A stretch of 64,000 nucleotides of DNA from a virus, in the IMG/VR virus record IMGVR_UViG_3300017963_000200, positions 74,639 through 138,638 of that record; one strand, written 5' to 3'. Each line of letters opens with the position of its first letter. The first letter of the stretch is position 1. The translations under genes and the position numbers were made by a program. The notes below the pieces were generated by a model that did not search any database, had not been told where the DNA came from, and worked only from the letters and a program-made list of their open reading frames with translations. Positions 9,410-60,823 of this stretch are shown piece by piece.

Positions 9410-9424
9410 GAAAGGAGGAGGACG

Positions 9425-10735: not shown

Positions 10736-10756
10736 CGAGAGCTGCTTGATGGGTGC

Positions 10757-10814: not shown

Positions 10815-11010
10815 AGGTGGGGTAACACCCTGGCACACCACGAGGAATCTGGATGTGGGTAATCGAGTTCCCGTCCTGGGGCCGGACGATACCGTTCTGT
10901 CCTATACCCACCCTGCCAGGGCAAGGAAACTGGTCAAGAACGGAAAGGCGGTCGTCGCCAACGGACGACCTTTCATCATTCGGTTAAACCGAGATCCCAG
11001 GGAGGACAAA

Positions 11011-43695: not shown

Positions 43696-44568
43696 ATGAT
43701 AATTAGAGATAAAGAACGAGAAGTTCGAACCTGCACTAAGTGTATGGAAGTAAAGTCTTTTTCTGAGTTTTCTTACTCAAGAACTGGTTTTGCTAATCGA
43801 AAGAGTATGTGTAAGAATTGCATGTATGAACATCGTCGCGAATACATGAAGAATTACAAGAAAAAGAAACTCAAGACTTTTGTTGAGGTTACATCTGGAG
43901 TTAAAACATGTACGCATTGCAAAGTAGAGAAACCGGTAACTGAATTTAGAAAACTTGTTACAGTTAAGGACGGTCGTCAGAGTTGGTGTATCCGATGTAC
44001 TCAGAAGCAGAGTCATGAGCGGGATAAACGGTTGAACTTCCCCCCTCGCAAGGAAGGGGTAAAAAAGTGTTCTCGATGTGAACAAGTCAAGTCTGTACGA
44101 GAATTTAGTCCGCATAAATACCATAGGGATGGTTTAGCTTCTTGCTGTAAAAAATGTGATGGACAACGTAGTGTATGTCGCAACAGACGTGATCCGCAGT
44201 CGAGATTGGCTTCAACTTTACGGAGTCGTTTGTTGGTAGCGTTGCAGTATCGTGATGGGACGGGCTATAAAGGAGGATCTGCCGTAGCAGATTTAGGGTG
44301 TACAATTCCAGAATTGAAGAAATATTTGGAAGATCAGTTTTATCCGCATCCCCATACTGGGGAATTGATGAACTGGGATAATTGGTCTAACTCGGGATGG
44401 CAGATCGATCATATAAAGCCTCTTTCTTCTTTTGATTTATTGGATCGGGCACAATTTTTGGAGGCATCTCGGTATACAAATCTACGACCTTTATGGTTGG
44501 TAGATCATATTAGGAAAACAAAGCGGGAGCAGAAAGCTCTGAAACTTTCTGAGGAGAAAAAATCATGA
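43696..44568 (+). CDS. HNH homing endonuclease (290 aa) with three N-terminal Cys4 zinc-ribbon repeats, encoded in an AT-rich island.
   Basis: Three repeats of C-x2-C-x3-K-S/P-x3-EF-x8-12-C-x2-C. The C-terminus GWQIDHIKP...NLRPLWLVDHIRK is a canonical HNH motif. GC content is about 40% against about 60% in the flanks. Confidence 0.7.
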   Translation: MIIRDKEREVRTCTKCMEVKSFSEFSYSRTGFANRKSMCKNCMYEHRREYMKNYKKKKLKTFVEVTSGVKTCTHCKVEKPVTEFRKLVTVKDGRQSWCIRCTQKQSHERDKRLNFPPRKEGVKKCSRCEQVKSVREFSPHKYHRDGLASCCKKCDGQRSVCRNRRDPQSRLASTLRSRLLVALQYRDGTGYKGGSAVADLGCTIPELKKYLEDQFYPHPHTGELMNWDNWSNSGWQIDHIKPLSSFDLLDRAQFLEASRYTNLRPLWLVDHIRKTKREQKALKLSEEKKS

Positions 44569-47500
44569 GGGGCAGCATTTATCCGGATGGGGTCGTTGTT
44601 GACCACACGGCGCTCCGACGCACGGAAACCAGCAAGTCCGAGGAGATCCTTCGGAATCGCCTGGATTGGACATCTCGGGGGATGTACACGGGCGGCGAAG
44701 TCACGGTGAACACCAGCGGTGCTCCGCCCTATCTCCACATCGATGTCGCGCAGCTGTCCGGATTTGCCCCGAACGGTGAATTTTTGCAGACTGCCAGTGA
44801 CTACTACGACATCGCGCTCGATGACGAGACGAGCGGTGTCGTGAACCTCGTCTGCGCGGTCTACACCGAGAACGAGATCCACAGGCAGCCGCACGAGAGC
44901 GACGGAGAGACCTATCCGACCGAGGCCGAGATGGCGTGGCGCATCCGGGTCTACTCGGAGGCCAATTACGCGGCGCTCCCGGCGACCGACGACAACCTGG
45001 CCAACGATGCCAAGAATCGGATGCTCGTCGTCAGCAAAGTCACGGCCAATGGTCCGTCGACCTCCTTGACGGCGAGCAGCATCCAGAGCCCGACGTCCTA
45101 CGACAGCATCCTCTACGCGGAGCCCCGCGAGTTCACGTCGATTCCTGGGATTGCGATTCTCGGCGTCTCGTCGGACACGCCGGTCGGTGACGGCACTTTG
45201 GACTACACCTACAGTGTGGGTCCGACCTACGACTTCACCTGGACCACAACCAACGGTGTCGGCGTGACGTTGTCACCGACCGTGGACGGCATTTACAACC
45301 TCACGGACGGTGCAGGAGCCTACCTGCGAGTTCAGATCGTCATCTCGATGCTGCCGACGAGCGGCACCTTCCCGATCTCCGAGACGGTCACGATTCATAA
45401 CCTCTACTACCAGGACATCCCGCGCCTGACTGCCGAGGACGAGCTGCACCGGCACTTCATCGGGACCGGTGTCGTGACTCCCACCAACCCGCACGGGACA
45501 TCGCTGAACGATATCCTGGAGCAGGAGTTCACTCTCCTCGAAGAGCACCAGGATATCGAACACTGCAACGGCATCTGGAAGGGTTCCAGTCCCAACGTCT
45601 TCGCCACGGCGGTCAACAATGCCTCCCCAGCCGACCAGCTGCTCATCACAGCTCCGGTGGCAGGCGATCTCTACTACGTCAACGGCAAGAAGCTCAGCTC
45701 CGTCGACGTGACCACCGTCGTCTTCTCCACTCCGGCGAACCAGACGGCCTATATGTACGAGATCTATGTTTCCGACGAGGAGACGGTCCAATACCTCCAG
45801 AAGATGTCCTATCCGGCGTCTCGGACGGTGACGGGGACTTGGATCATCGACGCGAGCCACGATTATCCGTTCGGCTCGGCCATTCTGGAGGTGCAGGTCA
45901 CCAACACGCCGTCGCTGCGGTACATCTTCAGGTGGGACAACGGGGATCAGGTCACGCTGCTGAGCACGAATCCGTCCCAGGTCATCAGGCTCTATGCCGA
46001 GGATGGAGAGCACTGGATCGATCTGTACGTGAACATGACGCCGGGCTCTGGCGACGAGTTCCTGCCCGGACTCGGTACTTTCACCGATTCAATCACCATC
46101 GCGGCCTCTCTGGATTTCGACCAGCACATCCAGATCGCGTCGACTCCGTACTGGTACGATGGTGCCTCCGCGACCTGGGTCATGGGCTACCCTCCGACGA
46201 CGTGGCCGGGCCGTGTGACTGTCGATAAGCGTCCGTGGGGCACCTTGTGCTTCGAGAATATGGCCGACACGGCCCTGGAGCAGATTGCCTGGGATCCCAA
46301 CAACGAGCTGGGGCGCTCCGGGGTTCTGCTGCGGCGTAACGGCTACAACAACGAGTTCCGGCTGGACTACGGAGGCAGCGGCCTCAACGCTGACATCAAC
46401 GGAGGATCCTACTACTGCCGGGGACGCCGCATCAGCATCGATTCGGTATCGAGCCTCGCGTTCTCCACCAACTCCACGTCGCTCGTCTGGGCCGACTACG
46501 AGGGGACGGTTCGAGTGCTGAACGTGAATGCTCTTTTCGCGGGGGATCTGACGGCGGCGATGCACTACATCCTCGGCTCGATGACCGATGTGCCGACCAA
46601 GAGCGCGATCTATCACGCCACCGACCTTCACGACGCTCCGGAGCGGGGCGTGATCCTCTGGTATGTCGAAACAGATGCCACCAACATCATCTACAACTGC
46701 GACTTCTCCCAGAATGTCAATCAGGTGCTCCACCCGTGGTCGGTCAGCTCGCGGAACGTCGGTTTCTATCCGGCGCAGGCAGCCTACGATTCGTTGTTCA
46801 CCGCCTTCGAGTACGCGAAGGTCTCCGGTCTCAAGGATCCGTACAGGGATGCGGCGGTCACCATCTACGTGACCGGGATGTGCGGCATCAACCGGGAGAT
46901 CACGCAGCCGCCCAATGTGAACGTCTGCGGCACGCGAGGCGCAGCCCTGACCCTCGCCAGGGTGGAAGTGGTCCACGTCGACATTACAGGAGCTTGGAAG
47001 CTCTCTTCCGGTTGCCAGATCTCCGGCCTCACCATCGACATGTACGCGAACAACGGGACCGTCTTCGCGCTGCACAACAACACCATCGTCGAGAAGTGCA
47101 ACTACACGGCGTTCGGTACGACCAATGACGCCATGTTCGCCCTCGACAACGGCGAGCGCACCATCGTGGGGGTCCGGATCCGTGACAACCTGATCGCCAC
47201 CTACAGCGGAATGTTCTTGAACGTCGCGCCCGTCCCGGACGGCTACATCGATTGGGAGATCATCGGCAACAATGTCGTGGTCGCCGCCAACTCGAACTAT
47301 CCCGTGATCAACCTCGACAGCGCATCGGCGATCCACATCAAGCGCAACAACATCGCGATCTTGAACGCCGGTTCGAACCCTACTCCCGGAATCTATGTCC
47401 AGACGAGCGGCACCTACCAGACGCGGGAGATCTTCATCGAGGACAACGTCATCAAAGCCGACTGCACGAGTCTCTCGAACACACCGACCTGCGTCTACTT

Positions 47501-49250
47501 CGAGAACGTGCAGTTGTCTACGATCAACGGCAACACCTTCGAGCCTCGGACGGTCCCCGGCACGACGCTCTTGACCGGGATCGCCACTCTCGGCGTCTCC
47601 AACATCGCCATCTGCGACAACAAGTTCAACGCCCTTGGCATCGGCGTCTACATCGCGGATTACTTCTATGATGTCGAGATCTTCAACAACAAGTTCTTGG
47701 CCTGTTACCACCGGGGCGTCAAGGTCGAGACCTTGAGCTATCCCGTCCTGAACAGCGTCTACGGCCTTCGGGTCGAAGAGAACGACATGAACATCTTCAT
47801 CAAAGGCGCGGTCGGCGGCAGCGGCTACGACGGCCAGTTGATGGGGGTCGAGATCGATCTGGGGACGCTGGATGTCGCGGATTCTGCGGTGACGGATATC
47901 TCCGTCTCGAACAACAACTTTTTCGGGTTCACCAACTCCACCGGTAACATCCGGGTCGTGCAGGCGCTGGTGAACTCCAACTCCAACACCATCCAGCGGA
48001 ACTTCAAGATCAACGGCAACCTGATGTCGGGAATGAACGCCCCCAACGGCAGCTTCCGGGGCGTGTACGTCTTGGCTTCCACTGCGGGTCAAGCAGGCTA
48101 CCCCATCGAGAACATTTCCGTCAGCCACAACCATATCTATGCGGAAGTCGATACAACTTCGTTCCGGATCGCGGGTCTTGACCTCGCGCACAAGATGACG
48201 GCTTCGGTCATCCAAGGGAACCAGATCCGCCTCATCAGCTCGAACGTGAACAGCAACGGCACCGGTATCTACATCGGCCAGGGCACGAACTCCGCTTCTT
48301 CCAGCGGGGTCGTGGTCGAAGGGAACACGATCACGACCCTTCGCGCCGGCATCTACGCCAATGTCACTTCCTCCAGCGTGATCGGCAACCGGGTCTTCTG
48401 CTTCGGGGAGGGGATCTTCCTGGAGGGCATAGCTCCTCCCAACGAGTCCCATCTGCTCTGCGACGGCAACAATATCCGGGTGCTCGGGCACAACAGCAAC
48501 CCATTCACGAGCGTTGGGGGCGGAGGGGGCTCCCATTGCATCACCGTCAGGACGGAGATGCTGCGCTTCTCGATCACGAACAACATCTGTCATTTGGAAG
48601 GTGTCCTCAATGCTTATCTGCCGGGATCGAAGGGTCTCATCGATGGCAGCAGCTGCATCAAAGTTCGAGACGGCGCTCAGTACGTGATCGAGGGCAACCA
48701 CACCCGGATCGAAGCCGGGGACGTCGAGGGAACGGACGGCAGCGGAGGCACGCGGGCTCACCACATCTACGTCCGGGCCGGAGCTGGCCTTTCCTATCCG
48801 TTCTACGGGGTCACCATCGAGGGCAACCACATCGACAACTGGAGAGCCCTGGGAGTTGCCTCGGTGTGCTACGGAATCTACGTTATTCCGGGCTCTGGGT
48901 GGTCGCACGCTGCCGGAGATGCCGGTCGTGCGGCCATCATCGGCAATCACATCGTCTCCTCCACCTGGGAAGCGGCGACCCCGTTCAACAACGACGCGGT
49001 CAACGGCAATCCTCCGGGGACGACCATTCCACGCCCCTTCGAGATCTACATCCCCGATTTCGGAGGTGACAGCGGCATCTACTCCACCGATATCTTCCTG
49101 GGTGCCAACGCCATCATGTCGCCGGACGACCCGCTCCCAAGACCGCGTGTCTACATGTGGAATCTCCATCTGACCATCGGTACCTGTCAGTCCAACTTGA
49201 CCAACTGGGGCGAGCTGGTCGGCCCCCCCTTCGCGACTCACTTCTGGTAG
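44565..49250 (+). CDS. Tailspike / tail fiber protein (1561 aa) with an extensive right-handed parallel beta-helix (pectate-lyase-like repeats). Possible glycan depolymerase.
   Basis: Dozens of repeats of the type (I/V)xGNx(I/V)...N: IIGNNVVVAANSNYPVINLD, RNNIAILNAG, VIGNRVFCFG, IIGNHIVSS, plus Asn ladders. ATGA overlap with the HNH gene. The GAGGAG RBS lies inside the HNH 3' end. Confidence 0.6.
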   Translation: MRGSIYPDGVVVDHTALRRTETSKSEEILRNRLDWTSRGMYTGGEVTVNTSGAPPYLHIDVAQLSGFAPNGEFLQTASDYYDIALDDETSGVVNLVCAVYTENEIHRQPHESDGETYPTEAEMAWRIRVYSEANYAALPATDDNLANDAKNRMLVVSKVTANGPSTSLTASSIQSPTSYDSILYAEPREFTSIPGIAILGVSSDTPVGDGTLDYTYSVGPTYDFTWTTTNGVGVTLSPTVDGIYNLTDGAGAYLRVQIVISMLPTSGTFPISETVTIHNLYYQDIPRLTAEDELHRHFIGTGVVTPTNPHGTSLNDILEQEFTLLEEHQDIEHCNGIWKGSSPNVFATAVNNASPADQLLITAPVAGDLYYVNGKKLSSVDVTTVVFSTPANQTAYMYEIYVSDEETVQYLQKMSYPASRTVTGTWIIDASHDYPFGSAILEVQVTNTPSLRYIFRWDNGDQVTLLSTNPSQVIRLYAEDGEHWIDLYVNMTPGSGDEFLPGLGTFTDSITIAASLDFDQHIQIASTPYWYDGASATWVMGYPPTTWPGRVTVDKRPWGTLCFENMADTALEQIAWDPNNELGRSGVLLRRNGYNNEFRLDYGGSGLNADINGGSYYCRGRRISIDSVSSLAFSTNSTSLVWADYEGTVRVLNVNALFAGDLTAAMHYILGSMTDVPTKSAIYHATDLHDAPERGVILWYVETDATNIIYNCDFSQNVNQVLHPWSVSSRNVGFYPAQAAYDSLFTAFEYAKVSGLKDPYRDAAVTIYVTGMCGINREITQPPNVNVCGTRGAALTLARVEVVHVDITGAWKLSSGCQISGLTIDMYANNGTVFALHNNTIVEKCNYTAFGTTNDAMFALDNGERTIVGVRIRDNLIATYSGMFLNVAPVPDGYIDWEIIGNNVVVAANSNYPVINLDSASAIHIKRNNIAILNAGSNPTPGIYVQTSGTYQTREIFIEDNVIKADCTSLSNTPTCVYFENVQLSTINGNTFEPRTVPGTTLLTGIATLGVSNIAICDNKFNALGIGVYIADYFYDVEIFNNKFLACYHRGVKVETLSYPVLNSVYGLRVEENDMNIFIKGAVGGSGYDGQLMGVEIDLGTLDVADSAVTDISVSNNNFFGFTNSTGNIRVVQALVNSNSNTIQRNFKINGNLMSGMNAPNGSFRGVYVLASTAGQAGYPIENISVSHNHIYAEVDTTSFRIAGLDLAHKMTASVIQGNQIRLISSNVNSNGTGIYIGQGTNSASSSGVVVEGNTITTLRAGIYANVTSSSVIGNRVFCFGEGIFLEGIAPPNESHLLCDGNNIRVLGHNSNPFTSVGGGGGSHCITVRTEMLRFSITNNICHLEGVLNAYLPGSKGLIDGSSCIKVRDGAQYVIEGNHTRIEAGDVEGTDGSGGTRAHHIYVRAGAGLSYPFYGVTIEGNHIDNWRALGVASVCYGIYVIPGSGWSHAAGDAGRAAIIGNHIVSSTWEAATPFNNDAVNGNPPGTTIPRPFEIYIPDFGGDSGIYSTDIFLGANAIMSPDDPLPRPRVYMWNLHLTIGTCQSNLTNWGELVGPPFATHFW

Positions 49251-49260
49251 TCTTCCCATA

Positions 49261-49885: not shown

Positions 49886-51082
49886 ATGCAGCTGTATGGA
49901 AGTCTGGGAAGGATCGAAAATGTAGTTGTCCCGGTTCTGACTGGGATGCTCACACGAGTACGGGAGCACAAGGAGAAGGTCATGGCGGATGATCGTAGGT
50001 ACAAATGTCCTCTCTGCGACTTCGGAGAGAAGGGCGACAAGACCAAGCGCGCAGTCAACATCCATCTGGGGACGGGCCACAAGGACGTCCCGAAGGAAGA
50101 ACGTCCGGCACCTATCGAAGTTGGCGGCGAGTCTCCAGAGATGCCTACGGCTGCGGAACCTGGAACCGAACCTCAACCTCCGACGCAGGAACCCCCGGTT
50201 CCGGAACGGGAGTCCAAGCCCGTTTCTCCGGAAGACGCCCCACAGCCTCCGAGCGCGGCTCCTCCGTTTCCCCCTCCGGACGCCCCACAGCCGCACCCGA
50301 CGAGCATCACGCCGGGATCGGCCCTTCTGCTCAACGGTCCAGCATGGCAACAGAACCCCGCGACCAAGGCGTGGGAGGCTGGTATCGCCGACCAGTTGAC
50401 CGTCCAGGTGCTCAAGAAGGAGTTGTCGACATCGGGGGATGTGGTCCTCATCTGCCGTGCGGAGAAATCCTCGGTTCTGTGGTCCGTCCAGGAGGAACTC
50501 GTTCTGAAGGGGATCGTGAAGCTTCTGTATCTCGCTCCGGGGAAACCTCACATCGAATCGGAGGCCGCGCGCCCGGAAGATGGTCCTCGTAACATCTCGG
50601 ATCCCGAGCACAACTACTTCGAGAAGCAGCGCAAGGCGCAGGAACTGCGGCAACAGCAGGAAGCGGAACGTGAAGATTACGGTACACGTCTCAGGCGCTA
50701 TACCGATGCGAATCGCCGCAAGAAGAGCGCTGAGAAGGAGTTCGAAGCGATCCGCGAGGAGGACTACGAGAAGCTCAAGTCCTATGTCAAGAAGTACGGA
50801 GAGCCTTCGGGACCCGGCAAGGACGACTGGATGATTGTCGATTTCGACTACAAGGCTCACATCGTGCGCCGACCCGGCGACAGCGGAGTCAAGCTCGACA
50901 CGGAAGTCATCGTCCAGTGGCTGCGTGATCACGACATGGAGGAGTGCTTGAACCACACCCTCAACATCACTGCCTGGGAGACGGCCAAGAAGGAGGGGAA
51001 GGTTCCTGCCGACTTTGTTCGTGAAGTCGAGGAGCCTTACAAGGATGCCGACGACTTCCAGTTCCGTATCGATCCTCTCTGA
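49886..51082 (+). CDS. Hypothetical early protein (398 aa; alternative start ATG 49982 gives 366 aa) with an N-terminal C2H2-like zinc finger and a Pro/Gln-rich linker.
   Basis: YKCPLCDFGEKGDKTKRAVNIHLGTGHK is C-x2-C...H-x4-H. Long PEPPQPP linker. Both candidate starts have GGAGG-like RBSs. Confidence 0.5.
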   Translation: MQLYGSLGRIENVVVPVLTGMLTRVREHKEKVMADDRRYKCPLCDFGEKGDKTKRAVNIHLGTGHKDVPKEERPAPIEVGGESPEMPTAAEPGTEPQPPTQEPPVPERESKPVSPEDAPQPPSAAPPFPPPDAPQPHPTSITPGSALLLNGPAWQQNPATKAWEAGIADQLTVQVLKKELSTSGDVVLICRAEKSSVLWSVQEELVLKGIVKLLYLAPGKPHIESEAARPEDGPRNISDPEHNYFEKQRKAQELRQQQEAEREDYGTRLRRYTDANRRKKSAEKEFEAIREEDYEKLKSYVKKYGEPSGPGKDDWMIVDFDYKAHIVRRPGDSGVKLDTEVIVQWLRDHDMEECLNHTLNITAWETAKKEGKVPADFVREVEEPYKDADDFQFRIDPL

Positions 51083-51118
51083 TCTTCCCGAACATTCCAG
51101 TCCAGTAATTTAAGAGGT

Positions 51119-52690
51119 ATGAATGTCGTTCTCCTCATCGACGGGAACCCTCTGCTCTGGCGCGCGGCCTACGCCGGCTACGGAACCGGCGACAGCTCTC
51201 TGGCGAAAGGGGTCTTGAACTACTTCTACTCGATGATTCACAAGTTCCGACCGCAGGACCTCGTGGTGTGCTGGGACAAGGGAATGTCCTGGTGGCGCTC
51301 GCAGCTCTACCCCGATTACAAGGCTCACCGGATGGAGAAGAAACGGGAGAGCGACATCGATCTGGAGATGGTCCAGGAGCAAGCAGGCTACGCCAGGAGG
51401 TACTTCGAGGCCCTCGGGGTGCGTCAGGTCATCTTGCCTGGCGTCGAGGCTGACGACGTCCTCTCGTGGCTCTCAGAGCACTATCTGAAGCGCATCGAGC
51501 ACTTCCCGGATTGGAAGATCGTCATCGCTACCGGGGATCAAGACCTGTGGCAGCTCGTTCGGGAAGATGGGCGCATCCTCATCTGGGATCCTCAGAAGGA
51601 ACTTCTAGTAGATCATTCAAAGGTAGTGGAGGTCCTTGGTGTATCTCCGGAACGCATCCCCGATCTGAAGTCGATGATGGGGGATGCTTCGGACAATTTG
51701 CCGGGGGTGAAGGGGATCGGCCAAAAGATAGGCTCGAAGTTGCTCCGCGAGTACGAGACGTTGGGCAATATCATGAGCCTCGATGAGAACCTCATCAAGG
51801 AACTGAAGAAGCGCAAGACGACGGCGCGGATCCTGGATGCCGATGACGTTCTTGGGGAGACGTACCGTCTTGTGAAGTTGCCCGCTATCCGCGAAGCCGC
51901 GCATTGCCTTTCTTCACAGGACCTGAAGCTTCTTCGAGAGCAGCTCGGGCAACCGCTCGACCGGGATTCCTTCCGACTCCAGGTGATGGCGGAGCGCATC
52001 GGGAAGTCGTGTGCGAACATCGAGCCGTTGGTTCCCACGTCGGCTTCGGATCTGACGGTCATGGTGGATGAAATGGAAGTATATCTATCGAATCAGACCT
52101 GGACCGATCTTCGAGAGGTCGACTGGGCGATCCTCGGATGCAACCAGTGCGCTCTCCGGGCCGACACGGGCGAGAAGGGGCCGACTCTTCCCCAAGGTCA
52201 TCAAGGGGTCGACATCATGCTCGTGGGCCGTAACCCTGGCCAGCAGGAGCTGGAGAACGGTGTTCCGTTCTGGCCGGATGCGCCGGCAGGAGGTCGGCTC
52301 AATCGCTTCTTGGAGGTGGTTGGTCTGGAGCGACACGAGTGCTGGATCACCAACGCGTGCAAGTGCTACTCCCAGGCCAATCGTCCTCCGACATGGCCCG
52401 AGGTTTTGGCGTGCTCGCGGTATCTCCGGGCCGAGATTGACCTCGTCAAGCCCAAGCTTATCATCTGTTTCGGTAACGAGGCGATGAGTCTCGTCACTCC
52501 ATACCGGAGCCGGGTGACGAAGCACTGCGGCGAGATTCTGGACAAACCCCGCAGTGTGATCGGTGACATCGACGCGCTGGTGGCAATCAGCGTACATCCG
52601 TCGGCGGCGTGTCGGGGTGGTCAGGGAGAATCGAACATGCAGTACGCCGAGACTAACGTCAAGGCCCTCCTGGACAAGGTGACCCAATGA
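51119..52690 (+). CDS. Fusion protein: 5'-3' exonuclease (FEN/Pol I N-terminal family, PIN + H3TH) joined to a C-terminal family-4 uracil-DNA-glycosylase-like domain with Fe-S cysteines.
   Basis: N-terminal LLIDGNPLLWRAAYA, YKAHR, EADDVLS and ATGDQDLWQLV match the FEN consensus. H3TH GDASDNLPGVKGIGQKIGSKLL. C-terminal GCNQCALR, GRNPGQQELENGVPFWPDAPAGGRLNRFL (like the GEAPG...PF.G.AG..L motif A of UDG family 4), NACKC, and VHPSAA (motif B, HPS). Confidence 0.75.
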   Translation: MNVVLLIDGNPLLWRAAYAGYGTGDSSLAKGVLNYFYSMIHKFRPQDLVVCWDKGMSWWRSQLYPDYKAHRMEKKRESDIDLEMVQEQAGYARRYFEALGVRQVILPGVEADDVLSWLSEHYLKRIEHFPDWKIVIATGDQDLWQLVREDGRILIWDPQKELLVDHSKVVEVLGVSPERIPDLKSMMGDASDNLPGVKGIGQKIGSKLLREYETLGNIMSLDENLIKELKKRKTTARILDADDVLGETYRLVKLPAIREAAHCLSSQDLKLLREQLGQPLDRDSFRLQVMAERIGKSCANIEPLVPTSASDLTVMVDEMEVYLSNQTWTDLREVDWAILGCNQCALRADTGEKGPTLPQGHQGVDIMLVGRNPGQQELENGVPFWPDAPAGGRLNRFLEVVGLERHECWITNACKCYSQANRPPTWPEVLACSRYLRAEIDLVKPKLIICFGNEAMSLVTPYRSRVTKHCGEILDKPRSVIGDIDALVAISVHPSAACRGGQGESNMQYAETNVKALLDKVTQ

Positions 52691-53634
52691 GCAAGCGTCT
52701 GGAAATCGACCGGAATTCCCCTGGCAACGAAAAGAAGCACTATGACGGCAAGTATCAACCCATCGATTTCATCGAGGACTGGAAGCTGGGCTTCACCGAG
52801 GGCTGCGTGGTCAAGTACGTGTCGCGCCACAAGAAGAAGAACGGCAAGGAGGATGTCAAGAAGACCATCTGGTATCTGAGCGTTCTCAAGGCGCGGTTCC
52901 AGTCGGGGAAGTTCGAGAAGCGCGAGTATCAAGGAGAGATCACGTTCAAGGAGTTCAGCAAAGCGCAGCATCTTGGCATCCTGGAGGACAACATCATCTA
53001 CTGCATGCTCGATGCACTTCGGTATGGGCGCGAGAGCCGGGTTGACGACGCCATCAACTACGCGGTCGACTTGCTGAGATGTTACGAGACGACTGGCGAT
53101 GTGGTCGACCGGGCCTTCGGAGGTGAGGAGCCGGAGAGCTTGAGGCCCAAGGGTTCCGTGACTCGGCAGCCCTTCAAGTTGATCGAGGATCGGATCTTCG
53201 ATGCGAACCCTTCTCCGCGTGGAGCACCCCATCCGAGGCGGTTTCATCTCGACGACGAGCGTGACAGCTATACAGTACGTTTTCAAATCAGCGGTCAGCA
53301 CGGCTACTTCACGGTGGGCACCTACGCGGATGGTACTCCAGGTGAGGTGTTCATCCGTCTTGGCAAAGAGGGTGCAGAATCGCACGGTTTCGCGGACATG
53401 TGGGCCATCGCGGTGTCGATGCTGCTCCAGTACGGAGTCGATCCGAAGAAAATCTATGACAAGTTCAAGTTCCAGCAGTTCGAACCTTCCGGTTTGACCG
53501 GTGTGAAGAAGGTGACCTTCTGCAAGTCGATCCCCGACCTGATCATGAAGTGGATGGAACGCCGGTTGCCACCTACCGGAGGTCCGGAAGACGATGATTA
53601 TGGCGACGCCATCGAGGAGATGATCTCTCAATGA
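52687..53634 (+). CDS. Hypothetical protein (315 aa) with a DUF3310-like N-terminal domain. The C-terminal region distantly resembles the C-terminal segment of class II ribonucleotide reductase but lacks its cysteines.
   Basis: HYDGKYQPIDFIEDWKLGFTEGCVVKYVSRHKKKNGKEDVKKTIWYLSVL fits the DUF3310 pattern (HY...IDxIE...L.F..GN.IKY..R...KNG.EDL.KA.WYL). The C-terminal GTYADGTPGEVFIRLGKEGAESHG...AIAVSMLLQYGV resembles the PFEVF..LGKAGGC...AI.RLIS.ALR.GV block of class II RNR. This is a memory-based comparison. Confidence 0.4.
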   Translation: MSKRLEIDRNSPGNEKKHYDGKYQPIDFIEDWKLGFTEGCVVKYVSRHKKKNGKEDVKKTIWYLSVLKARFQSGKFEKREYQGEITFKEFSKAQHLGILEDNIIYCMLDALRYGRESRVDDAINYAVDLLRCYETTGDVVDRAFGGEEPESLRPKGSVTRQPFKLIEDRIFDANPSPRGAPHPRRFHLDDERDSYTVRFQISGQHGYFTVGTYADGTPGEVFIRLGKEGAESHGFADMWAIAVSMLLQYGVDPKKIYDKFKFQQFEPSGLTGVKKVTFCKSIPDLIMKWMERRLPPTGGPEDDDYGDAIEEMISQ

Positions 53635-54056
53635 GAGTGATCGTCCAGATCGGCTTCCAGAAGGCTGCTGGGAGACGTCGGGAGGGGCAGCTCGTCCAGG
53701 CCTGGGTGAACGACGAGGAATGCTCCTGGAGCGACGGCTGCGGGAAGTACCTCACGTCTCGCGCGGAGTCCGCTCAGGGCGTTCTCTGGTATCTGTGGCA
53801 GGGAGATGTGGGCTCCGACGACACGATCCGCATCGCGGTGAAGACATCTTTGGCCAAGATCGGCACCGACGAGGCGCGAACCTTCGAGACACTCTACTAC
53901 ATGAACCCGGATGCCCCGGTGCGGCAGATCGAGGTGAAGGGAGTGGGTCGTCGAGGCTATCCTCTGCTCAAGGGACGGCTCATCGAGGCAGCACACGTCT
54001 CCGAGAAGGACAAGCGTGAGGCCGAGATCGAGGCCTTTCTGGAGGGGGACTTTTGA
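53631..54056 (+). CDS. Hypothetical protein (141 aa).
   Basis: ATGA overlap upstream. Consistent codon usage. Confidence 0.45.
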   Translation: MRVIVQIGFQKAAGRRREGQLVQAWVNDEECSWSDGCGKYLTSRAESAQGVLWYLWQGDVGSDDTIRIAVKTSLAKIGTDEARTFETLYYMNPDAPVRQIEVKGVGRRGYPLLKGRLIEAAHVSEKDKREAEIEAFLEGDF

Positions 54057-55861
54057 TCGATGTCTTCTTGAGACGCTGGCGCATCTGCGTCCGGCTCGAT
54101 CCGACCCATCCCTACTACCAGCGGGCCTATCTGGTCGTGCGCTCGTTGCTGTCGGCCTACGAGATCGAAGAGAACCTCTGGACCATCAACTTCCACGACA
54201 TGAACCTCCTCCGAGCCCGTTTGGACCAGCTCGGCCTGGTGGAGGGGCGCACCATCACCGATGATGCCTGGGACAGGCTCGCTTATCTGGGTTCTCGGCA
54301 GGTGCGCAACATCGACATCAAGCGGGGGGTCAACAACGATCAGGTTCGGGGTGCCCTCAACGGGAAGCTCAAGTGCGTGCCCTACGAGGACCAGCTACCG
54401 GCCATCTCCTTCGCCGTGAACAATCGGAGAGCCGGGATCTTCGACGAGATGGGGGTGGGGAAGAGCCTTGAGGCGCTCGCGGCTATCGTCGTCCTCGACA
54501 CGTTGGTACGGCGTTCTCTCGTCATCTGTCCTTACACGGCCCAAATTTCCTTCAGACGGGAGGTTGAGAAGCATACCTACCTCAAGGTGGTCCAGGTGCC
54601 TTCGGGGCGTAAGCGGGCGTTCAAGTTCATCCAAGAGCACCAGGAAACCGAGTGGGACCTGATGCTCATCCACCCCGAGAATCTTATCGGAGGGGGCGGG
54701 CGAGGAAACATCTACGGAGACACTACGAAGCTATTGCGTTCGATGCTGTGGGATTTGATCATCGTCGACGAATTCCACATGTATAAGAACCTGACTGCCA
54801 AGCGCACGAAGTGCGTGTTATCCCTCCTGAATGAGTCGAAGGATCGGGCTGGGAAGCGCCCGAGGACCATCTTGCTGACCGGGACTCCCGTTTCGGAGAG
54901 CCCGTTGAACGCTTACGTGGCCCTGAAGGTGTTGACGCAGGGCTATCTGCCCCACATCAATAAGTTCGAGCATCATTTTGTCGTGAAACAGGCGATCAGC
55001 TACGGATCGAAGGGCACTCATGCCAAGGTAGTGGGATATCGCAACCTGGACGAGCTGAAAACGATGATCGAAGCTGTCTCCATCCGGCGCACCAAGGCCG
55101 ACATGCATGGATTTCCGGATCGCGTCTTCATGATCCGGGATGTGGAGCTGTCCGGGAAGCAGCTGGCCCTTTATCGCACGATCTGTGGCGAAATCGTTGC
55201 CGGATTGCCGAAATCCACCGTCATCAACCTGATGCGCTTCTTGTCGAACAACACGACAGTGCTGCGCCTGCGCCAGGTCATGAATCATCCGAATCTTCTC
55301 GATGAAGCTGGCGAATCGGCCAAATATGTCGAAATTGACAACATTCTTGAGGAGATTCTGGCCGATCCGGAGCAGAAGGTCATCCTGTGGACCGAATTTC
55401 GACGCGCAGTTGAGAATCTCTACGAGAGGTACGATCCCATCTACGGCGCGTACCAGATCTACGGCGGCGTCACCAACGAGCAGCTCGAACAGATGGCCTT
55501 CGACTTCGAGAACCGGGACAAGCCTCGCGTGGTCGTCGCCATTCCGGCCAAGGCCGGGACGGGTCTCGATTTCCTGGCTAGGGCGCGCACCGCCATCTAC
55601 GTCGATCGTCCTTACAGCTTCACGCTTTACAAGCAGAGCATCGACCGCATCCACCGCCGGATCACGAGCGGCCAGATGTCGCGGCTGGATACCATTCGGG
55701 CGAAGCCGGCGACGATGATCTTTCTGGATGTCATCAACTCCGTCGACGAGCTGATTCGTGACCGCCTGCACGGAAAGCAGGACCTCGCGGACGCATTGAC
55801 CACTTCGGACGAGAAGTTGGTCGAGCTGGGCCGTGAAGACCTGTTGAGGTACTTGAAATGA
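54053..55861 (+). CDS. SNF2/Rad54-family helicase (602 aa).
   Basis: Motif I GVGKSLEA. Motif II LIIVDEFHMYKN. Motif III LLTGTPVSESPLNAYVALKVL. C-terminal helicase domain with the Gln-Arg motif QSIDRIHRRITSGQ. TTG start overlapping the upstream TGA is inferred. Confidence 0.75.
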   Translation: MIDVFLRRWRICVRLDPTHPYYQRAYLVVRSLLSAYEIEENLWTINFHDMNLLRARLDQLGLVEGRTITDDAWDRLAYLGSRQVRNIDIKRGVNNDQVRGALNGKLKCVPYEDQLPAISFAVNNRRAGIFDEMGVGKSLEALAAIVVLDTLVRRSLVICPYTAQISFRREVEKHTYLKVVQVPSGRKRAFKFIQEHQETEWDLMLIHPENLIGGGGRGNIYGDTTKLLRSMLWDLIIVDEFHMYKNLTAKRTKCVLSLLNESKDRAGKRPRTILLTGTPVSESPLNAYVALKVLTQGYLPHINKFEHHFVVKQAISYGSKGTHAKVVGYRNLDELKTMIEAVSIRRTKADMHGFPDRVFMIRDVELSGKQLALYRTICGEIVAGLPKSTVINLMRFLSNNTTVLRLRQVMNHPNLLDEAGESAKYVEIDNILEEILADPEQKVILWTEFRRAVENLYERYDPIYGAYQIYGGVTNEQLEQMAFDFENRDKPRVVVAIPAKAGTGLDFLARARTAIYVDRPYSFTLYKQSIDRIHRRITSGQMSRLDTIRAKPATMIFLDVINSVDELIRDRLHGKQDLADALTTSDEKLVELGREDLLRYLK

Positions 55862-57009
55862 GCGACTTCGTCACCGAGCAGGTCCACGCCGACCTCTACG
55901 AGTACTCTCTCGCTTTGTCTCAGAAGTATGGCGTGCGCCCGGTCTATTTTACGAACAAGAACCTCCTCGATCCTCGGGAGTGCTTTGACGATATCATCTA
56001 TCTTTCTCGATATTTTTGGACCTGTTTCGTCTTCACCGGCTTGCTGACGCCGTGGCACGATGATCCCGATCCCATTGGACTTCTTCGCAAGAGTGTCGAC
56101 TACGTGCGCCGCTGGCTCTGGATCTGTGAGGACATGGATGTCGATTGGCGCAGTTACTGCGTGCTCTCCTTCTGCATGACTCCCTACGAGATGTATGAAC
56201 GTCCTACGATGCTTCTTGGGCAGCGCAAGCACTGGACCTGGATGCGCAAGTTCAGGAAGTACACCAAGAGTCGAAAGCTCGTGGATGAAGTGGCCTTCTT
56301 CATGCTGGAGTTCATTCGTCTTCAGATCGAGCACAGCGGACGCGCCTCCTTTTCGAAGCGTGTCTTCATCGGCCCCGACTTGAGCAGGGGAGTCGAGAAG
56401 GGAAAAGCTCCTCCGAAGACATTGGTGCTCTATCAGCAGGTTGCGAACCGTATCAATCAGATTCACAACGAAGGGGTCGACTATCTCGATTGGTTGGTGC
56501 TCAAGTGCCGCAATCTTTACAAGATGGCTCCCGAGCAGCCTCTCCAGATCCAGACGGTTGTGAACGTCAACCAGCTCGATCCCGATTTTGACCTGCTCCG
56601 TATCCGCGCTGCCGACGAATGGCGCGCGGTGCGGGAGTTCTTGGGGCTCTCTTTCGAATGTGAGTTCCCAGACGGGGCGATTCCGAAGGGATGGCAGCCG
56701 GCTTCCGACGACATGATCGACCGGAGCAAGATTCGGAGAATCACCGCTGACGGTTACTACTACTATGCGGACGGCACCCAACGACGCGGTAAGCGTCACT
56801 ATGCCACCAACAAGTACCTGACGATCCGAGTGTCGCCCGAGAACTTCGAGGAGTTCCATAAAGAATGGGATGATCCGCGTCTGTTGACGGCTATGCCGAC
56901 GTGGGAAGAGTACTCGCGTTACGGAATGTATCCTGATCTGTGGGACGAGAATGGTACCAACATTTCGCCCTACCAGGCGATCCGGGACGTGCGCTGGAGG
57001 AGGGGATGA
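55858..57009 (+). CDS. Hypothetical protein (383 aa), Trp/Tyr-rich.
   Basis: ATGA overlap upstream. Confidence 0.5.
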   Translation: MSDFVTEQVHADLYEYSLALSQKYGVRPVYFTNKNLLDPRECFDDIIYLSRYFWTCFVFTGLLTPWHDDPDPIGLLRKSVDYVRRWLWICEDMDVDWRSYCVLSFCMTPYEMYERPTMLLGQRKHWTWMRKFRKYTKSRKLVDEVAFFMLEFIRLQIEHSGRASFSKRVFIGPDLSRGVEKGKAPPKTLVLYQQVANRINQIHNEGVDYLDWLVLKCRNLYKMAPEQPLQIQTVVNVNQLDPDFDLLRIRAADEWRAVREFLGLSFECEFPDGAIPKGWQPASDDMIDRSKIRRITADGYYYYADGTQRRGKRHYATNKYLTIRVSPENFEEFHKEWDDPRLLTAMPTWEEYSRYGMYPDLWDENGTNISPYQAIRDVRWRRG

Positions 57010-57686
57010 GCAAGAAGAAACAGAATCCTGAGCTGGGACCAGAGGTGCATGAGCTGGTTCTCGTTGTAGATCGCGAGGTTCTGGAGGACTTCGACGGCCT
57101 CGACGGATGTTCGATCACCACGCAGCCTGACGATCTGGACCAGATCTCAGCGAGTCTGCGGGGGGCCTTTTTCATGTCGCGTCGTGAGGCCGAGGAGAAT
57201 CCGGTCTATAAGCAGATCATTCCTTACTTGATTGTCTCTTCAGGAGACCGCTACTTGACGTACCGGCGATCCGGGGCCGAGAAGCGCCTCACCGATCTTT
57301 TCTCCATCGGCATCGGGGGGCATATCAATCCTGCCGATAGCGCCGAGCGTCGGATGGGGCTGATCCGGAACAACGTGCGGCGCGAGGTGGCCGAGGAGCT
57401 GAGCCTCGATGGAGCCGAGTCCATCTGGGACGAGCTGTCAGATGACTTTGCCGTAGTCGGCGTCCTCTATGATGATTCGAACGATGTGGGTCGGGTCCAC
57501 TTGGGAATCGTCTTGCGCATCGACGTGCGTCCCGCGCTTGCCAAGCGCCTTCGGATGGGAGACGAGGGCAAGGAGATGTCCTGGAAGGTTCAGGAGGAAC
57601 TGGAGGGTATCTACAACGTCCTGGAGGGGTGGAGCAAGGTTTGCGTGGACGCGCTCGCTGACTTCGTCGAGGTGCACGCTCAATGA
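57006..57686 (+). CDS. Nudix-like hydrolase (227 aa), divergent Nudix box.
   Basis: ATG 57006 overlaps the upstream TGA. GGHINPADSAERRMGLIRNNVRREVAEELSL approximates G-x5-E-x7-REUxEExGU (REVAEELS). Confidence 0.35.
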   Translation: MSKKKQNPELGPEVHELVLVVDREVLEDFDGLDGCSITTQPDDLDQISASLRGAFFMSRREAEENPVYKQIIPYLIVSSGDRYLTYRRSGAEKRLTDLFSIGIGGHINPADSAERRMGLIRNNVRREVAEELSLDGAESIWDELSDDFAVVGVLYDDSNDVGRVHLGIVLRIDVRPALAKRLRMGDEGKEMSWKVQEELEGIYNVLEGWSKVCVDALADFVEVHAQ

Positions 57687-58429
57687 CCGATCTGAAGCAG
57701 CTGAAGGAGCGCATCATGGGGGGCTGCCCCGCTTGTGGCGGAGACGGCTACATCGACTTCGATCTGTGCAACTGCGCGATCAAGTTCCGCGCCTTCAGCT
57801 GGCTCATCGATGGTGGATTTCATGAAGATACTCTCGATCTGGTGAGTTCTTCGAACTACGTGCTGCCGATGCTGGAATCTGGTGGAGAGTCGGTGGACTA
57901 CTTCTTGCGCAATCCCTTCGACGTGATGGACAAAGGGTTGAGCCTTTACCTGTTTTCTAAGGAGAACGGGCGCGGCAAGACGACGCTGGCTCACTACCTC
58001 GTGTACGCGTTGGCGTGGCCCTTCTGCAAGACCGAGAATTACAGTCGTCAACGCACCTACGGCTTTGCCGACATGCATTCCTTGCTGGAGGCGTTTCTGG
58101 AGCGCGAGGATGTTGGGGACGCCTGGAAGTCGACGGTGTTGGTGATCGATGACCTCGGCAGTGAGAGTAGGAGCGCCGCGTGGAAGACCGACACTGTCAT
58201 CTCGATGCTGCACCGTATCATGCACTACCGTCGCAACAACAAGTTGCCCACGATCATCACCTCGAACTTCGCTCCCGCAAGCCTTGTCGGCTTCTACCAA
58301 GGGGTTCTCGACTCGGTCCTGGAGATACGTCCGGACGGCATTGTCGGAGGTAAGATCTTCCGTCAGGTCGAGGTAGGGGGCGGCGAGGATTTCCGGCTCA
58401 TGGACGGTAGGAGCGATTGGCCGACCTGA
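57683..58429 (+). CDS. DnaC/IstB-like AAA+ helicase loader (248 aa) with an N-terminal Cys4 zinc finger.
   Basis: CPACGGDGYIDFDLCNC. Walker A GRGKTTLA. Walker B VLVIDDLGSE. Confidence 0.6.
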   Translation: MTDLKQLKERIMGGCPACGGDGYIDFDLCNCAIKFRAFSWLIDGGFHEDTLDLVSSSNYVLPMLESGGESVDYFLRNPFDVMDKGLSLYLFSKENGRGKTTLAHYLVYALAWPFCKTENYSRQRTYGFADMHSLLEAFLEREDVGDAWKSTVLVIDDLGSESRSAAWKTDTVISMLHRIMHYRRNNKLPTIITSNFAPASLVGFYQGVLDSVLEIRPDGIVGGKIFRQVEVGGGEDFRLMDGRSDWPT

Positions 58430-59775
58430 TGCAGATTGACGTCAACATCGAGGCCGAATTTCTCGCCTCCATTTTGCAAAACGCTGGGTTCGTCGAGGTC
58501 GACGTCCTTCGTGTCGTAGAGCCTGAATATTTTCAGGTCGATTCCTACCAGTGGCTCGTCAGGATCTTGCAGAAGCGCAACTGGAAACCGCCTGTCTTCG
58601 AGTATCTAGATCAAGAGCTGCTCTCCGTCGAGAACGAGGAGACGCGGTTCAAGTACCGTAACCAGCTCTACGCGCTCTACATCCGTAAACTGTCGTTCAT
58701 CGAGGACGCATCCAGTACGTTCCGTGCTTACGTTGCATTCTGTATCGCCAACACCAAGACGCGGAGTGCCTTCGAGGGTTTCGCGCGCACGAGTCGGGTC
58801 GATTTCCTGCTCGACGAGATCGAAGAAGGTTTCCACAGCGCGAAGGATGTCATTCGAACCAACCGGCTTCCGGTCGTCGACTACGCCACTACGTACCAGG
58901 AACGCCAGGAGCAGCGACGGTACATCCGTGACAACCCGAGCATGAGCCCCCGGATCCTGACCGGCATCATGGGGCTCGATCAGCAGTTCGTTATCAAGGC
59001 ACCGATGCTGGCGGACATGCTTGCTCCGTTCAAACGCTACAAGAGCATCTTTTTGAATGCCTTCGGTTACGCCTTTCTGCTTCAAGGCTTCGATGTGCTG
59101 CATGTCACCTACGAGAATTCGATGGACATGACGATGGATCGCTACGACGCCATGTTCTCCGAGCTGAACTACGACCGCGTCTCGAACCTGCTGCTCACCA
59201 AGAAGGAGAAGGAGGACCTCGACCGCACGTTCTCCTGGATGCAGACCTGGAAAAATCGGTTGAAGATTATCAAGGGCACTTCTTACGAGACCAAAGTCTC
59301 GGACGTGGAAGAGGAGATCGAACGTCTCAAAGACCGTGAGGGTTTTGTTGCAGATGTAGAGATATGGGATTATTTGAATATCATTGCACCTTCGAAATCG
59401 TTCAATCAGGAACGCCACGAGCAGCGTCAGATTGTCTGGGATTTGAAAATTCACGCAGAACGATACAATGTGGCAATCTTCGAGGCTTCCCAGTCGAATT
59501 TGGAGGGTGCACAGGCGGATCGTCTCGGACTTGGCCACCGAGGATTATCCACGGATATCTCTCGCGGAATCGACCTTTGTATCGGAATCGATCAAAATGA
59601 AAAGGAGGCCGAGGCCGGCATCATAGTGCTGTCTCCGCAGTTCTTCCGGGGTGGCCCTATTACTATACCTGAAATAGTTTTAGATTCTGATCTTCCAAGG
59701 ATGGTAGTTAGTCGTGAATTGCATCGTTTATGGCAGCATGCTGCACGAATAAATCCTTACGTTCCGAATACTTAG
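58429..59775 (+). CDS. DnaB-family helicase-like protein (448 aa) with a degenerate Walker A (no GKT/S).
   Basis: ATG 58429 (TGATG overlap). N-terminal EAEFLASILQN...EPEYFQVDSYQWLVR resembles the DnaB N-domain. TGIMGLDQQF corresponds to the DnaB motif TG..eLD..t. ASQSNLEG is like SQLNR. At the P-loop position the sequence is VIKAPMLADMLAP instead of ARP.MGKT. Confidence 0.45.
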   Translation: MQIDVNIEAEFLASILQNAGFVEVDVLRVVEPEYFQVDSYQWLVRILQKRNWKPPVFEYLDQELLSVENEETRFKYRNQLYALYIRKLSFIEDASSTFRAYVAFCIANTKTRSAFEGFARTSRVDFLLDEIEEGFHSAKDVIRTNRLPVVDYATTYQERQEQRRYIRDNPSMSPRILTGIMGLDQQFVIKAPMLADMLAPFKRYKSIFLNAFGYAFLLQGFDVLHVTYENSMDMTMDRYDAMFSELNYDRVSNLLLTKKEKEDLDRTFSWMQTWKNRLKIIKGTSYETKVSDVEEEIERLKDREGFVADVEIWDYLNIIAPSKSFNQERHEQRQIVWDLKIHAERYNVAIFEASQSNLEGAQADRLGLGHRGLSTDISRGIDLCIGIDQNEKEAEAGIIVLSPQFFRGGPITIPEIVLDSDLPRMVVSRELHRLWQHAARINPYVPNT

Positions 59776-59817
59776 AACTTTTCTCGGCACTGAACATAAA
59801 TTAAGTGGTGTTTTTTC

Positions 59818-59846
59818 TTGACATGGGTTTTCGTGGCTGCTAGTTA
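59818..59846 (+). promoter_or_regulatory. Sigma-70-like promoter candidate TTGACA-N17-TAGTTA upstream of the primase gene.
   Basis: TTGACA at 59818-59823 and TAGTTA at 59841-59846, in an AT-rich 85-nt intergenic gap. A T6 run lies just upstream. Confidence 0.4.
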
Positions 59847-59860
59847 TACGGTCTGAGTAT

Positions 59861-60823
59861 GTGACAGAGTACTGGTTTTTCGGGGAAGATATGGTCGATC
59901 CGCAGTCGTACATTCTGTCCAAGTTTCCCGATAAGGAACCCAACTCCTCCGGGGAGATACATGCTCGATGTCCATTCCATGATGACCATAATCCTTCATT
60001 CTCAATAAACATTGACCGGGGAGTCTTTGTGTGCGGCTCCGGACGGTGTGGAGTACGTGGGAATTTTGCTCTTTTTTACAAGCTCATGGAAAATATCACC
60101 TCTTGGCGCGAGGTCTACGAACGCCTGAAGGTGACTCGGCTCGCCGTGGATATCAAGGAGTTATTGGCCGAGAAGCCCAAGGGGATCAAGCAGTATACTA
60201 TCAGTGAGTTTCCGCAGGCTCCCAACGCTCTCGTTGAAAACATCGGTCGCGTCCCGTACCTGGAGGAGCGTGGTCTCGACCGGAATGTCATCGATACTTT
60301 TGGGCTGCTCTACGGGCGTCTCGGCGTTTCAGCTGGCATCAGCGTGCAGGACTCGATCATTCTTCCCGTCTACGATCTCAACGGTGTCTATCTCACCTTC
60401 CAGGTCCGCTACCTCAACCCAAAATCGCGGCTGCGTTGGCGCAGTCCTTCGTCTTCACCGATTCAACGACTGTTGTACGGGGGGTGGCTGCTTCCTTGGA
60501 ACCGGTCGGGCCGTTTCTGGATCGTGGAGGGCGCGTCCGACGTATGGAACCTCTATCGTTTCGGCATTCAGAGCGTCGGCCTCTTCACAAAGGAGGCATC
60601 CGATGCGCAGCTCAACCGCATCGTGCAGATCTGCCGTGACCTCGGACTTACGCCCGAGGTGTGCCTCGACGGCGATGCGGCGACACCGAAGAAGAACTAC
60701 GGGAAGGTGATCCAGAACGAGCTGCTCGCGTCCGGTGTCAACGCGGGTCTCATTCAACTGGAACGCCACGAGGACCCTGGCGGTTTGTCCGCAGAACGAA
60801 TCGCGGAGTTGTGGAGGGCGTGA
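59861..60823 (+). CDS. DNA primase, DnaG-like (CHC2 zinc finger + Toprim).
   Basis: CPFHDDHNPSFSIN...FVCGSGRCGVRGN is the CHC2 zinc-binding motif. WIVEGASDVWNL and CLDGDAATPK are Toprim E and DxD. GTG 59861 or ATG 59891 as start. Confidence 0.7.
   Translation: MTEYWFFGEDMVDPQSYILSKFPDKEPNSSGEIHARCPFHDDHNPSFSINIDRGVFVCGSGRCGVRGNFALFYKLMENITSWREVYERLKVTRLAVDIKELLAEKPKGIKQYTISEFPQAPNALVENIGRVPYLEERGLDRNVIDTFGLLYGRLGVSAGISVQDSIILPVYDLNGVYLTFQVRYLNPKSRLRWRSPSSSPIQRLLYGGWLLPWNRSGRFWIVEGASDVWNLYRFGIQSVGLFTKEASDAQLNRIVQICRDLGLTPEVCLDGDAATPKKNYGKVIQNELLASGVNAGLIQLERHEDPGGLSAERIAELWRA

Follow-up and report, generated by a model that had tools for sequence, protein, structure and literature searches.

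The 64,000-nucleotide stretch of DNA analysed here (positions 74,639 to 138,638 of IMG/VR virus record IMGVR_UViG_3300017963_000200, hereafter the window) is part of a large tailed-phage genome. Its gene at 51119..52690 on the plus strand codes for one protein of 523 residues that is confirmed to be a flap endonuclease (FEN) joined to a putative iron-sulphur (Fe-S) domain of the uracil-DNA glycosylase (UDG) type. The FEN-UDG fusion is a conserved family, not a one-off, and also occurs with canonical family-4 UDG motifs. The best explanation of the protein, with a probability of roughly 0.55, is that it supplies the 5' nuclease to a split Pol I-like machine in which a UDG domain tethered to the replisome would excise uracil. 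Its domain arrangement and its motif variant are both new, but within known enzyme families, and do not amount to a new kind of system.

Architecture and conservation of the fusion protein

The fusion gene is a single open reading frame (ORF) that starts with ATG, preceded at a short spacing of 1 nt by the Shine-Dalgarno-like AAGAGG (51112..51117, +); the choice of start codon is backed mainly by the aligned amino termini of homologous proteins. An identical protein (P0001) is present on 3 contigs, the largest of 188,555 bp. The sequence-only reading of the window had ascribed FEN/Pol I 5'-nuclease signatures to the ~300 amino-terminal residues, which Pfam, PDB sequence searches and conserved carboxylates bear out. 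The 5' nuclease N-terminal (PIN/resolvase-like) domain spans residues 4–172 (51128..51634, +; PF02739, 96.7 bits against a cut-off of 34.3, E 1.6e-27) and is followed by an H3TH/SAM-fold DNA-binding domain at residues 175–254 (51641..51880, +; PF01367, 61 bits against a cut-off of 40, E 1.5e-16) which carries GDASDNLPGVKGIG (D189, D192). PDB sequences similar to this half are the 5' nucleases of Pol I and Taq polymerase, mycobacterial FEN and T5 FEN, and its predicted fold matches those of T5 FEN (target-normalised Foldseek template-modelling (TM) score 0.76–0.77), E. coli ExoIX (0.84) and M. smegmatis FEN (0.69). The FEN catalytic carboxylates D8, D53, E110, D112, D113, D140 and D142 line up with the EADD and DKD motifs of Taq and M. 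smegmatis Pol I. They are invariant or nearly so among 48 aligned family sequences, regardless of whether the UDG pocket of the protein is intact or decayed, and D189 and D192 of the GDxSDN motif are invariant in the same alignment. By domains, residues and fold, the amino-terminal half is a bacterial/phage FEN of the Pol I type with predicted flap cleavage activity, and the nuclease reads as the indispensable function of the family.

The carboxyl-terminal half holds a family-4-like UDG domain at residues 336–511 (52124..52651, +; PF03167 at residues 359–508, 84.2 bits against a cut-off of 24.3, E 1.2e-23), so that all three Pfam domains anticipated from the sequence are found far above their gathering scores. 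The family-4 motifs noticed earlier are present as GRNPG (370–374), PF (383–384), AG (389–390) and HPSAACR (493–499), and the four cysteines described as a 4Fe-4S arrangement (C341, C344, C416, C432) fall in the alignment on the Cys positions of family 4. A search of PDB sequences with this half retrieves UdgX and family-4 UDGs at E ~1e-18, and Foldseek assigns it a UDG fold (TM-score 0.85 to S. tokodaii family-4 UDG, 0.78–0.82 to UdgX); profile and fold matches are thus to UDGs and not to a different fold. No polymerase domain is detected in the chain by Pfam, which sets it apart from UDG-PolA fusions.

The two halves are connected by residues 255–335 (51881..52123, +), which form a structured helical linker in an AlphaFold2 model built from 48 family members; conserved positions in or next to it include L251, E268, G295 and D335. 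The model of the fusion has a mean predicted local distance difference test (pLDDT) score of 94.1, a predicted TM-score of 0.91 and no segment below 50 pLDDT. Residues 255 to ~335 are helical in it, rather than a floppy tether, and this lack of disorder suggests that the two domains are held in a fixed relative position. Foldseek of the model against the PDB found no chain spanning both halves.

Homologous proteins were collected by a word-indexed search that gave ~54 clusters at 90% identity sharing all three Pfam domains, and by a profile search over 1.84 billion representatives that yielded further, more distant members. Hmmsearch of all the proteins fetched defined 101 distinct proteins with both FEN and UDG domains, all on phage-like contigs. 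The clustered homologs are 34–100% identical to the query and all metagenomic (JGI, ENA, Logan and NCBI assemblies), on contigs of up to 188 kb. A homolog search with the UDG half alone gave 3 proteins only and added nothing. The frame is uninterrupted in ~100 independent sequences of 34–73% identity, so the fusion is due neither to chance nor to sequencing error.

The earlier suggestion that a FEN-UDG protein without polymerase domain is unusual agrees with its absence from all the collections searched. Among 50,697 deposited phage records no match extends over at least 80% of the protein, while the UDG half alone matches 49 of them, as a stand-alone protein or within a polymerase gene and never beside FEN. 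BFVD holds no model with both domains (best query-normalised TM-score 0.50), and a pattern-seeded scan of 185,579 species-representative genomes returned FEN/Pol I matches only, none extending past residue ~355. Full-text searches of open-access literature and bioRxiv found no description of a FEN-UDG or UDG-FEN fusion and nothing relevant on GRNPG. The UDG half also matches genes annotated as DnaE-type (Pol III alpha) in MG018927.1 (Pseudomonas phage nickie) and MK994522.1 (Methanobacterium virus PhiF1), so C-family phage polymerases, too, may carry UDG-like domains.

Several homologs display other layouts. P0204 (426 aa) and P0242 (416 aa) have tandem UDG domains, the first with a degenerate motif A (GQYP) and the second with a canonical one (GEGPG or GEAPG). 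In P0158 (457 aa) the order is reversed, with a partial canonical UDG at residues 1–121 followed by FEN at 151–436; it may be incomplete or have arisen by a separate fusion.

The UDG domain and its pocket

The first two putative [4Fe-4S] ligands, C341 and C344 (52139..52150, +), form a C-x2-C that matches in alignment the CxxC found in UdgX and in S. tokodaii UDG. The third, C416, lies in a segment aligned to 4zbx and UdgX (52352..52384, +) together with T411-N412, which holds the Asn in the uracil-contacting position, and with N421-R422. The fourth, C432 (52412..52414, +), is invariant in 101/101 FEN+UDG proteins. These are the four cysteines expected of family 4, the cluster itself being predicted. 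Motif A is the variant G370-R371-N372-P373-G374 (52226..52240, +), aligned to GEAPG of 4zbx and GEQPG of UdgX. Motif B, H493-P-S-A-A-C-R499 (52595..52615, +; family consensus HPSAALR), aligns with HPSSLLR of UdgX and was counted as an instance of the family-4 motif HPS(S/A)(L/V)(L/V)R with its catalytic His. By alignment to 4zbx and UdgX, residues E377, F384, N412, N421 and H493 are the counterparts of E47, F54, N80, N89 and H155 of Thermus UDGa. The pair N421-R422 corresponds to Thermus thermophilus UDGa N89 and UdgX H109, two positions known to be equivalent (PMC10359453). The roles of N80 and N89 in the Thermus enzyme have been described (PMC5387724).

Assignment of the domain to family 4 is only partial. 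It shares with the family-4 UDGs of Thermus (UDGa, 1ui0) and S. tokodaii (4zbx) the fold, the four Cys, motif B and the pocket (Asn of both TN and NR, a stacking Phe and a Glu that follows motif A by 6 residues); unlike them, it has an RN doublet in place of E(A/G) in motif A, a score below the TIGR00758 cut-off and a fusion to a nuclease. The scores with the Arch_udg model (90.9 against a cut-off of 250) and with TIGR03914 (88.3 against 189.95) are likewise below cut-off. UdgX of M. smegmatis is the top-scoring PDB sequence relative of this half, with 28–30% identity. Identity with UdgX was nevertheless rejected because the KRRIH loop bearing the covalently linking His109 is a gap in the query and motif A reads GRNPG, not GEQPG. 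Cross-linking to DNA of the UdgX type was rejected as well, the R-loop and its His being absent from the HMMER alignment.

The sequence-only reading had left it between catalytic residues that are intact and a degenerate, structural motif A. Neither description holds for this phage, whose GRNPG is a conserved variant, while motif A is truly degenerate in 25 relatives. The canonical family-4 motif A is GE(A/G)PG (PMC10359453, PMC5387724). The third position of this motif 1 is a water-activating Asp in family 1, an Asn in family 2 and a Gly or Ala in family 4 (PMC5387724). N372 therefore gives the domain a trait of families 2/3 (MUG/TDG, SMUG1), whose scaffold has no Fe-S cluster, yet the Fe-S cysteines are also present. 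The likeness to these families is confined to one catalytic position, since no significant match in sequence or fold lies outside family 4 and UdgX. The EG doublet of family 4 co-evolves and can be swapped for QD at little cost in activity (PMC5387724), which makes a third doublet plausible: by analogy, RN may be a third co-adapted solution of motif A with Asn372 positioning the water.

The 101 proteins fall into three pocket classes. The RN-type, GR[NS]P, has 63 members in which R371 (63/63), N372 (61/63), F384 (56/63), N412 (61/63) and H493 (57/63) are conserved, as are R499 (59/63) and N421 (50/63, with Asp in 11 more); the Cys ligands are found in 62–63 of the 63 (C341 63/63, C344 62/63, C416 63/63). 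The 13 canonical members, GE(A/G)P-like, all have Glu instead of R371 and none has N372; F384 is kept in 11/13, N412 in 12/13 and the Cys in 11–13/13, and H493 is not aligned in 7. The remaining 25 are degenerate: they lack motif A, the PF loop, N412 and H493 jointly (R371 in 4/25, N372 in 2/25, F384 in 3/25, N412 in 3/25, H493 in 0/25) and retain the four Cys (23–25/25, with C341/C344 in 23–24/25). In a quick neighbour-joining tree without support values, whose clades are provisional, the RN class comprises the clade of the phage studied here and another whose linkers are longer, the canonical members have a clade of their own on a different group of large phage contigs, and degenerate members appear several times within the RN clade.

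Conservation of the RN-type pocket residues at 40–70% overall identity points to selection on a working pocket, and their joint loss in 25 members is a pattern of passage from enzyme to pseudoenzyme which suggests that the remaining members are enzymes. In most lineages, that of this phage among them, the pocket thus reads as being under selection, and so as probably catalytic or at the least able to bind a base, while the Fe-S domain reads as keeping some value after pocket loss. One homolog, P0152 (908 aa), carries a 363-aa LAGLIDADG intein at residues 421–783, exactly at the third Fe-S Cys; its junctions are VTNTAK | C...HN | CYTAANR and the ligand Cys is the +1 residue.

A separate PolA and other arrangements of the modules

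The contig could be extended through a neighbouring ORF to ENA ERZ27256798 k141_1251890 (188,449 bp; L003), and gene content was examined over ~74 kb of this 188-kb genome. A family A polymerase of 770 aa (PolA) is encoded at L003:11266-13578, ~1.4 kb beyond the end of the window and ~11 kb downstream of the FEN-UDG gene. Its 3'-5' exonuclease begins at residue 13, it has neither 5' nuclease nor UDG, and of PDB entries it most resembles the Klenow fragment of E. coli. In the NCBIfam Pol I model the FEN half covers positions 3–242 and PolA positions 327–888. Together they cover the model, which suggests a Pol I divided between its nuclease and Klenow parts, with UDG at the break. The best PDB matches of the two proteins, the Pol I 5' nuclease and Klenow, tell the same; unlike bacterial Pol I, which has no UDG, the parts are coded by two genes ~11 kb apart and UDG stands at the break point. 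Relatives at 58% and 45% identity have the same gene order, a separate Klenow-like PolA included.

The same modules are found in three other arrangements. SPO1 and SP-10 have a stand-alone FEN and a UDG-exo-Pol protein (PMC10201439). P0173 (1163 aa) and P0182 (1184 aa) hold FEN-UDG-exo-Pol in one chain, laid out as Pol I with UDG between the 5' nuclease and the Klenow part. The gene of P0173 (L089:3055-6546) follows genes for QueC, a dGTP-diphosphohydrolase-like protein and a dCTP deaminase/dUTPase, neighbours that hint at a phage with modified bases. P0173 is only 24–32% identical per domain to the proteins of the phage studied here, so a recent fission of a four-domain polymerase is not supported. 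Finally, in L008 (L008:9998-13365; IMGVR_UViG_3300037067_013058) FEN (301 aa) and an RN-type UDG (215 aa) are separate ORFs, with a serine resolvase and OrfB_IS605/TnpB gene (IS607-like element) inserted in the inter-domain linker.

Among known systems the closest are the UDG-PolA fusions (SPO1-like; SP15-like, with the active YerA41 and phiLo; inactive N4-like), in which UDG is likewise attached covalently to PolA-based machinery and likewise comes in active-looking and degenerate versions. Unlike them, the phage studied here has UDG carboxyl-terminal to FEN and a separate polymerase, and its domain has the Cys ligands that the SPO1 and SP-10 UDG domains lack. In SP15-like UDG-PolA, dU is excised ahead of the polymerase and the UDG domain is reported to occupy the docking site of FEN on Pol I of E. 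coli (bioRxiv 10.1101/2025.03.26.645540), a position that fits a UDG attachable on either side of the nuclease/Klenow junction. In Sulfolobus, family-4 UDG1 binds PCNA3 and FEN1 binds PCNA1 of one ring (PMC1636371). This PCNA toolbelt likewise brings UDG and flap endonuclease to one DNA site for excision and then long-patch processing; its assembly is non-covalent, through the clamp, with a FEN1 of archaeal/eukaryotic type, whereas the phage link is covalent and its FEN is of bacterial/phage type.

Proposed function and alternatives

In the proposed mechanism FEN would remove RNA primers and the 5' flaps raised by the separate Klenow-like PolA, while the rigid helical linker would hold the [4Fe-4S] family-4-type UDG domain against it. 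The UDG domain would most likely flip out and excise uracil at or near the nick or flap under processing, tying uracil removal to the nick-translation (long-patch) step that finishes repair. Asn372 would probably take the water-positioning role of the Asn and Asp of UDG families 2 and 1, with His493, Asn412, Phe384, Glu377 and Asn421 acting as do their Thermus UDGa counterparts. We infer Fe-S binding, glycosylase activity, uracil as substrate, coupling of FEN and UDG and contact with PolA; judged from its residues, the uracil glycosylase of this phage is probably active.

Several observations weigh against this proposal. TIGR00758 matches residues 341–511 at 99.1 bits, under its cut-off of 125.3, and GRNPG lacks the Glu of the family-4 motif A, single substitutions of which reduce k2/Km of Thermus UDGa ~1000-fold (PMC5387724). 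Neither an AP endonuclease nor a dUTPase was seen among the ORFs scanned over ~74 kb. The separate halves in L008 imply that covalent linkage may not be essential, and the quarter of the family (25 members) that keeps domain and Cys without the pocket indicates that the domain can be useful without catalysis. This last point leads to an alternative considered possible though rather doubtful for the phage studied here, namely that the UDG-like domain is not a glycosylase at all and serves as an Fe-S DNA-binding module for processivity, positioning or uracil sensing that anchors FEN on DNA or polymerase. Such a role has already been suggested for vaccinia D4 and for the UDG-PolA domains of the N4-like and T5-like kinds; the N4-like UDG-PolAs have lost their catalytic residues and a processivity role was put forward for them (PMC10201439, PMC3201878). 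It would also account for the 25/101 FEN-UDG proteins that lost motif A, the PF loop, N412 and H493, several times in the tree, and kept the four Cys and fold-defining segments, and it agrees with the Arg that replaces the motif-A Glu. A pure scaffold would however have no need of the uracil-contacting and leaving-group residues that are kept at 80–100% in the 63 RN-type members. Inteins tend to home into sites critical for function, and that of P0152 sits at the third Cys ligand; this speaks for the cluster, though, more than for catalysis.

Conversely, the RN-type could be an active glycosylase with a changed target that polices base composition in replication and not ordinary uracil repair, acting on a 5-substituted or mismatched pyrimidine (SMUG1/MUG-like) or on unmodified T/U in a genome of modified pyrimidines. 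The Asn at motif-1 position 3 is the catalytic residue of family 2 (PMC5387724) and is also found in the SPO1 UDG domain (VQENPF). The UDG-PolA fusions known to be active come mostly from phages whose thymine is hypermodified, SPO1, SP-10, SP-15 and YerA41 (bioRxiv 10.1101/2025.03.26.645540, PMC10201439), and the gene context of P0173, described above, points the same way. This explanation is nonetheless unlikely for the phage studied here: no gene for a hydroxymethylase, thymidylate-synthase homolog, glycosyltransferase or similar protein was found in the replication module of the window or the 10 kb beyond. The rest of its pocket is that of a uracil enzyme. Thymine is excluded in E. coli UNG by Tyr66. 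Glu377 is conserved and is the counterpart of Thermus E47, which has been compared with that Tyr (PMC5387724). ThyX is encoded near the FEN-UDG gene in L090 (third gene downstream), a relative with a degenerate UDG, but says little on this phage. That the RN-type is a distinct catalytic class, combining the family-4 Fe-S scaffold and pocket with an Asn in motif A in the style of families 2/3 and having a substrate or mode unlike plain uracil repair, appears similarly improbable. Such a class might tell modified pyrimidines from unmodified ones, or recognise a base of flap or template and direct the fused FEN to cut there, in which case the fusion would be a single base-directed replisome nuclease and not two independent enzymes. 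The last alternative, that an assembly or sequencing frameshift joined adjacent FEN and UDG genes, is refuted. It could appeal to the separate ORFs of L008, a split which is explained by the inserted resolvase and TnpB element, and it conflicts with a linker that is conserved and predicted to be structured and with the same open frame recurring in sequences from JGI, ENA, Logan and NCBI assemblies.

The proposed split Pol I-like machine with a uracil-excising domain bears on the recurring puzzle of UDG-like domains on phage replicases, for which uracil excision, selection of modified bases and processivity have all been proposed. The family offers a natural comparative series of four modules, with fused, split, one-chain, IS-interrupted and pocket-decayed lineages. 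The series makes testable both the contribution of UDG beside a 5' nuclease and whether RN is a third workable motif A. If both activities were confirmed, the protein would be a compact flap-nuclease and uracil-glycosylase enzyme possibly useful as a reagent.

Genomic setting

The window codes for an intein-bearing portal, structural proteins and a 1561-aa fibre, followed from ~49.3 kb by the replication module. The stop of the FEN-UDG gene overlaps the start of the next gene (ATGA at 52687-52690) and the two are possibly translationally coupled. This next gene (52687..53634, +) codes for a 315-aa fusion of DUF3310 and TSCPD (PF11753, PF12637). The DUF3310 part carries the PHROG label 'nucleotide kinase' and the TSCPD part matches the carboxyl-terminal region of B12-dependent ribonucleotide reductases; the gene has the same position in the relative L001/L002, and the TSCPD part stands alone in L008. 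A 141-aa ORF separates it from the genes identified by Pfam and PHROG matches at 54053..60823 (+), which code for a SNF2 helicase (54053-55861, +), a DnaC-like loader (57683-58429, +), a DnaB-like helicase (58417-59775, +) and a DnaG-type primase (59861-60823, +), the latter with a zinc finger read in its sequence. This order of replication genes is common to L001, L090 and L091. Between primase and PolA, a 370-aa ORF (61710-62822, +) has the size of a beta-clamp and no family match; it may be a divergent sliding clamp. PolA is followed by genes for a clamp-loader subunit (L003:15262-16332), RecA and an Mre11-like phosphoesterase.

Two proteins of the replication module have zinc-finger motifs of the C2H2 type, a rarity among phages. 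One is encoded directly upstream of the FEN-UDG gene (49886-51082, +) and has no family match; the other, encoded directly after PolA (L003:13580-14374), has zf-met and zf-C2H2_jaz matches.

The portal protein (1048 aa, phrog_16240; 1107-4253, +) contains an intein with LAGLIDADG_3 at residues 678–760 and a weak Intein_splicing match. A 290-aa ORF between tail genes (43696-44568, +), with repeated endonuclease VII/HNH and Lar-like matches, has a G+C content at third codon positions (GC3) of 0.35 against ~0.75–0.85 in its neighbours and looks like a recently acquired homing-type endonuclease. Note that a 1056-aa antisense ORF (46089-49259, −) lies inside the 1561-aa fibre-like gene (44565-49250, +) and that a 1414-aa minus-strand ORF (6680-10924) overlaps several plus-strand genes. 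Both look like shadow ORFs of GC-rich DNA and not like genes, since the plus-strand genes exceed them in GC3.

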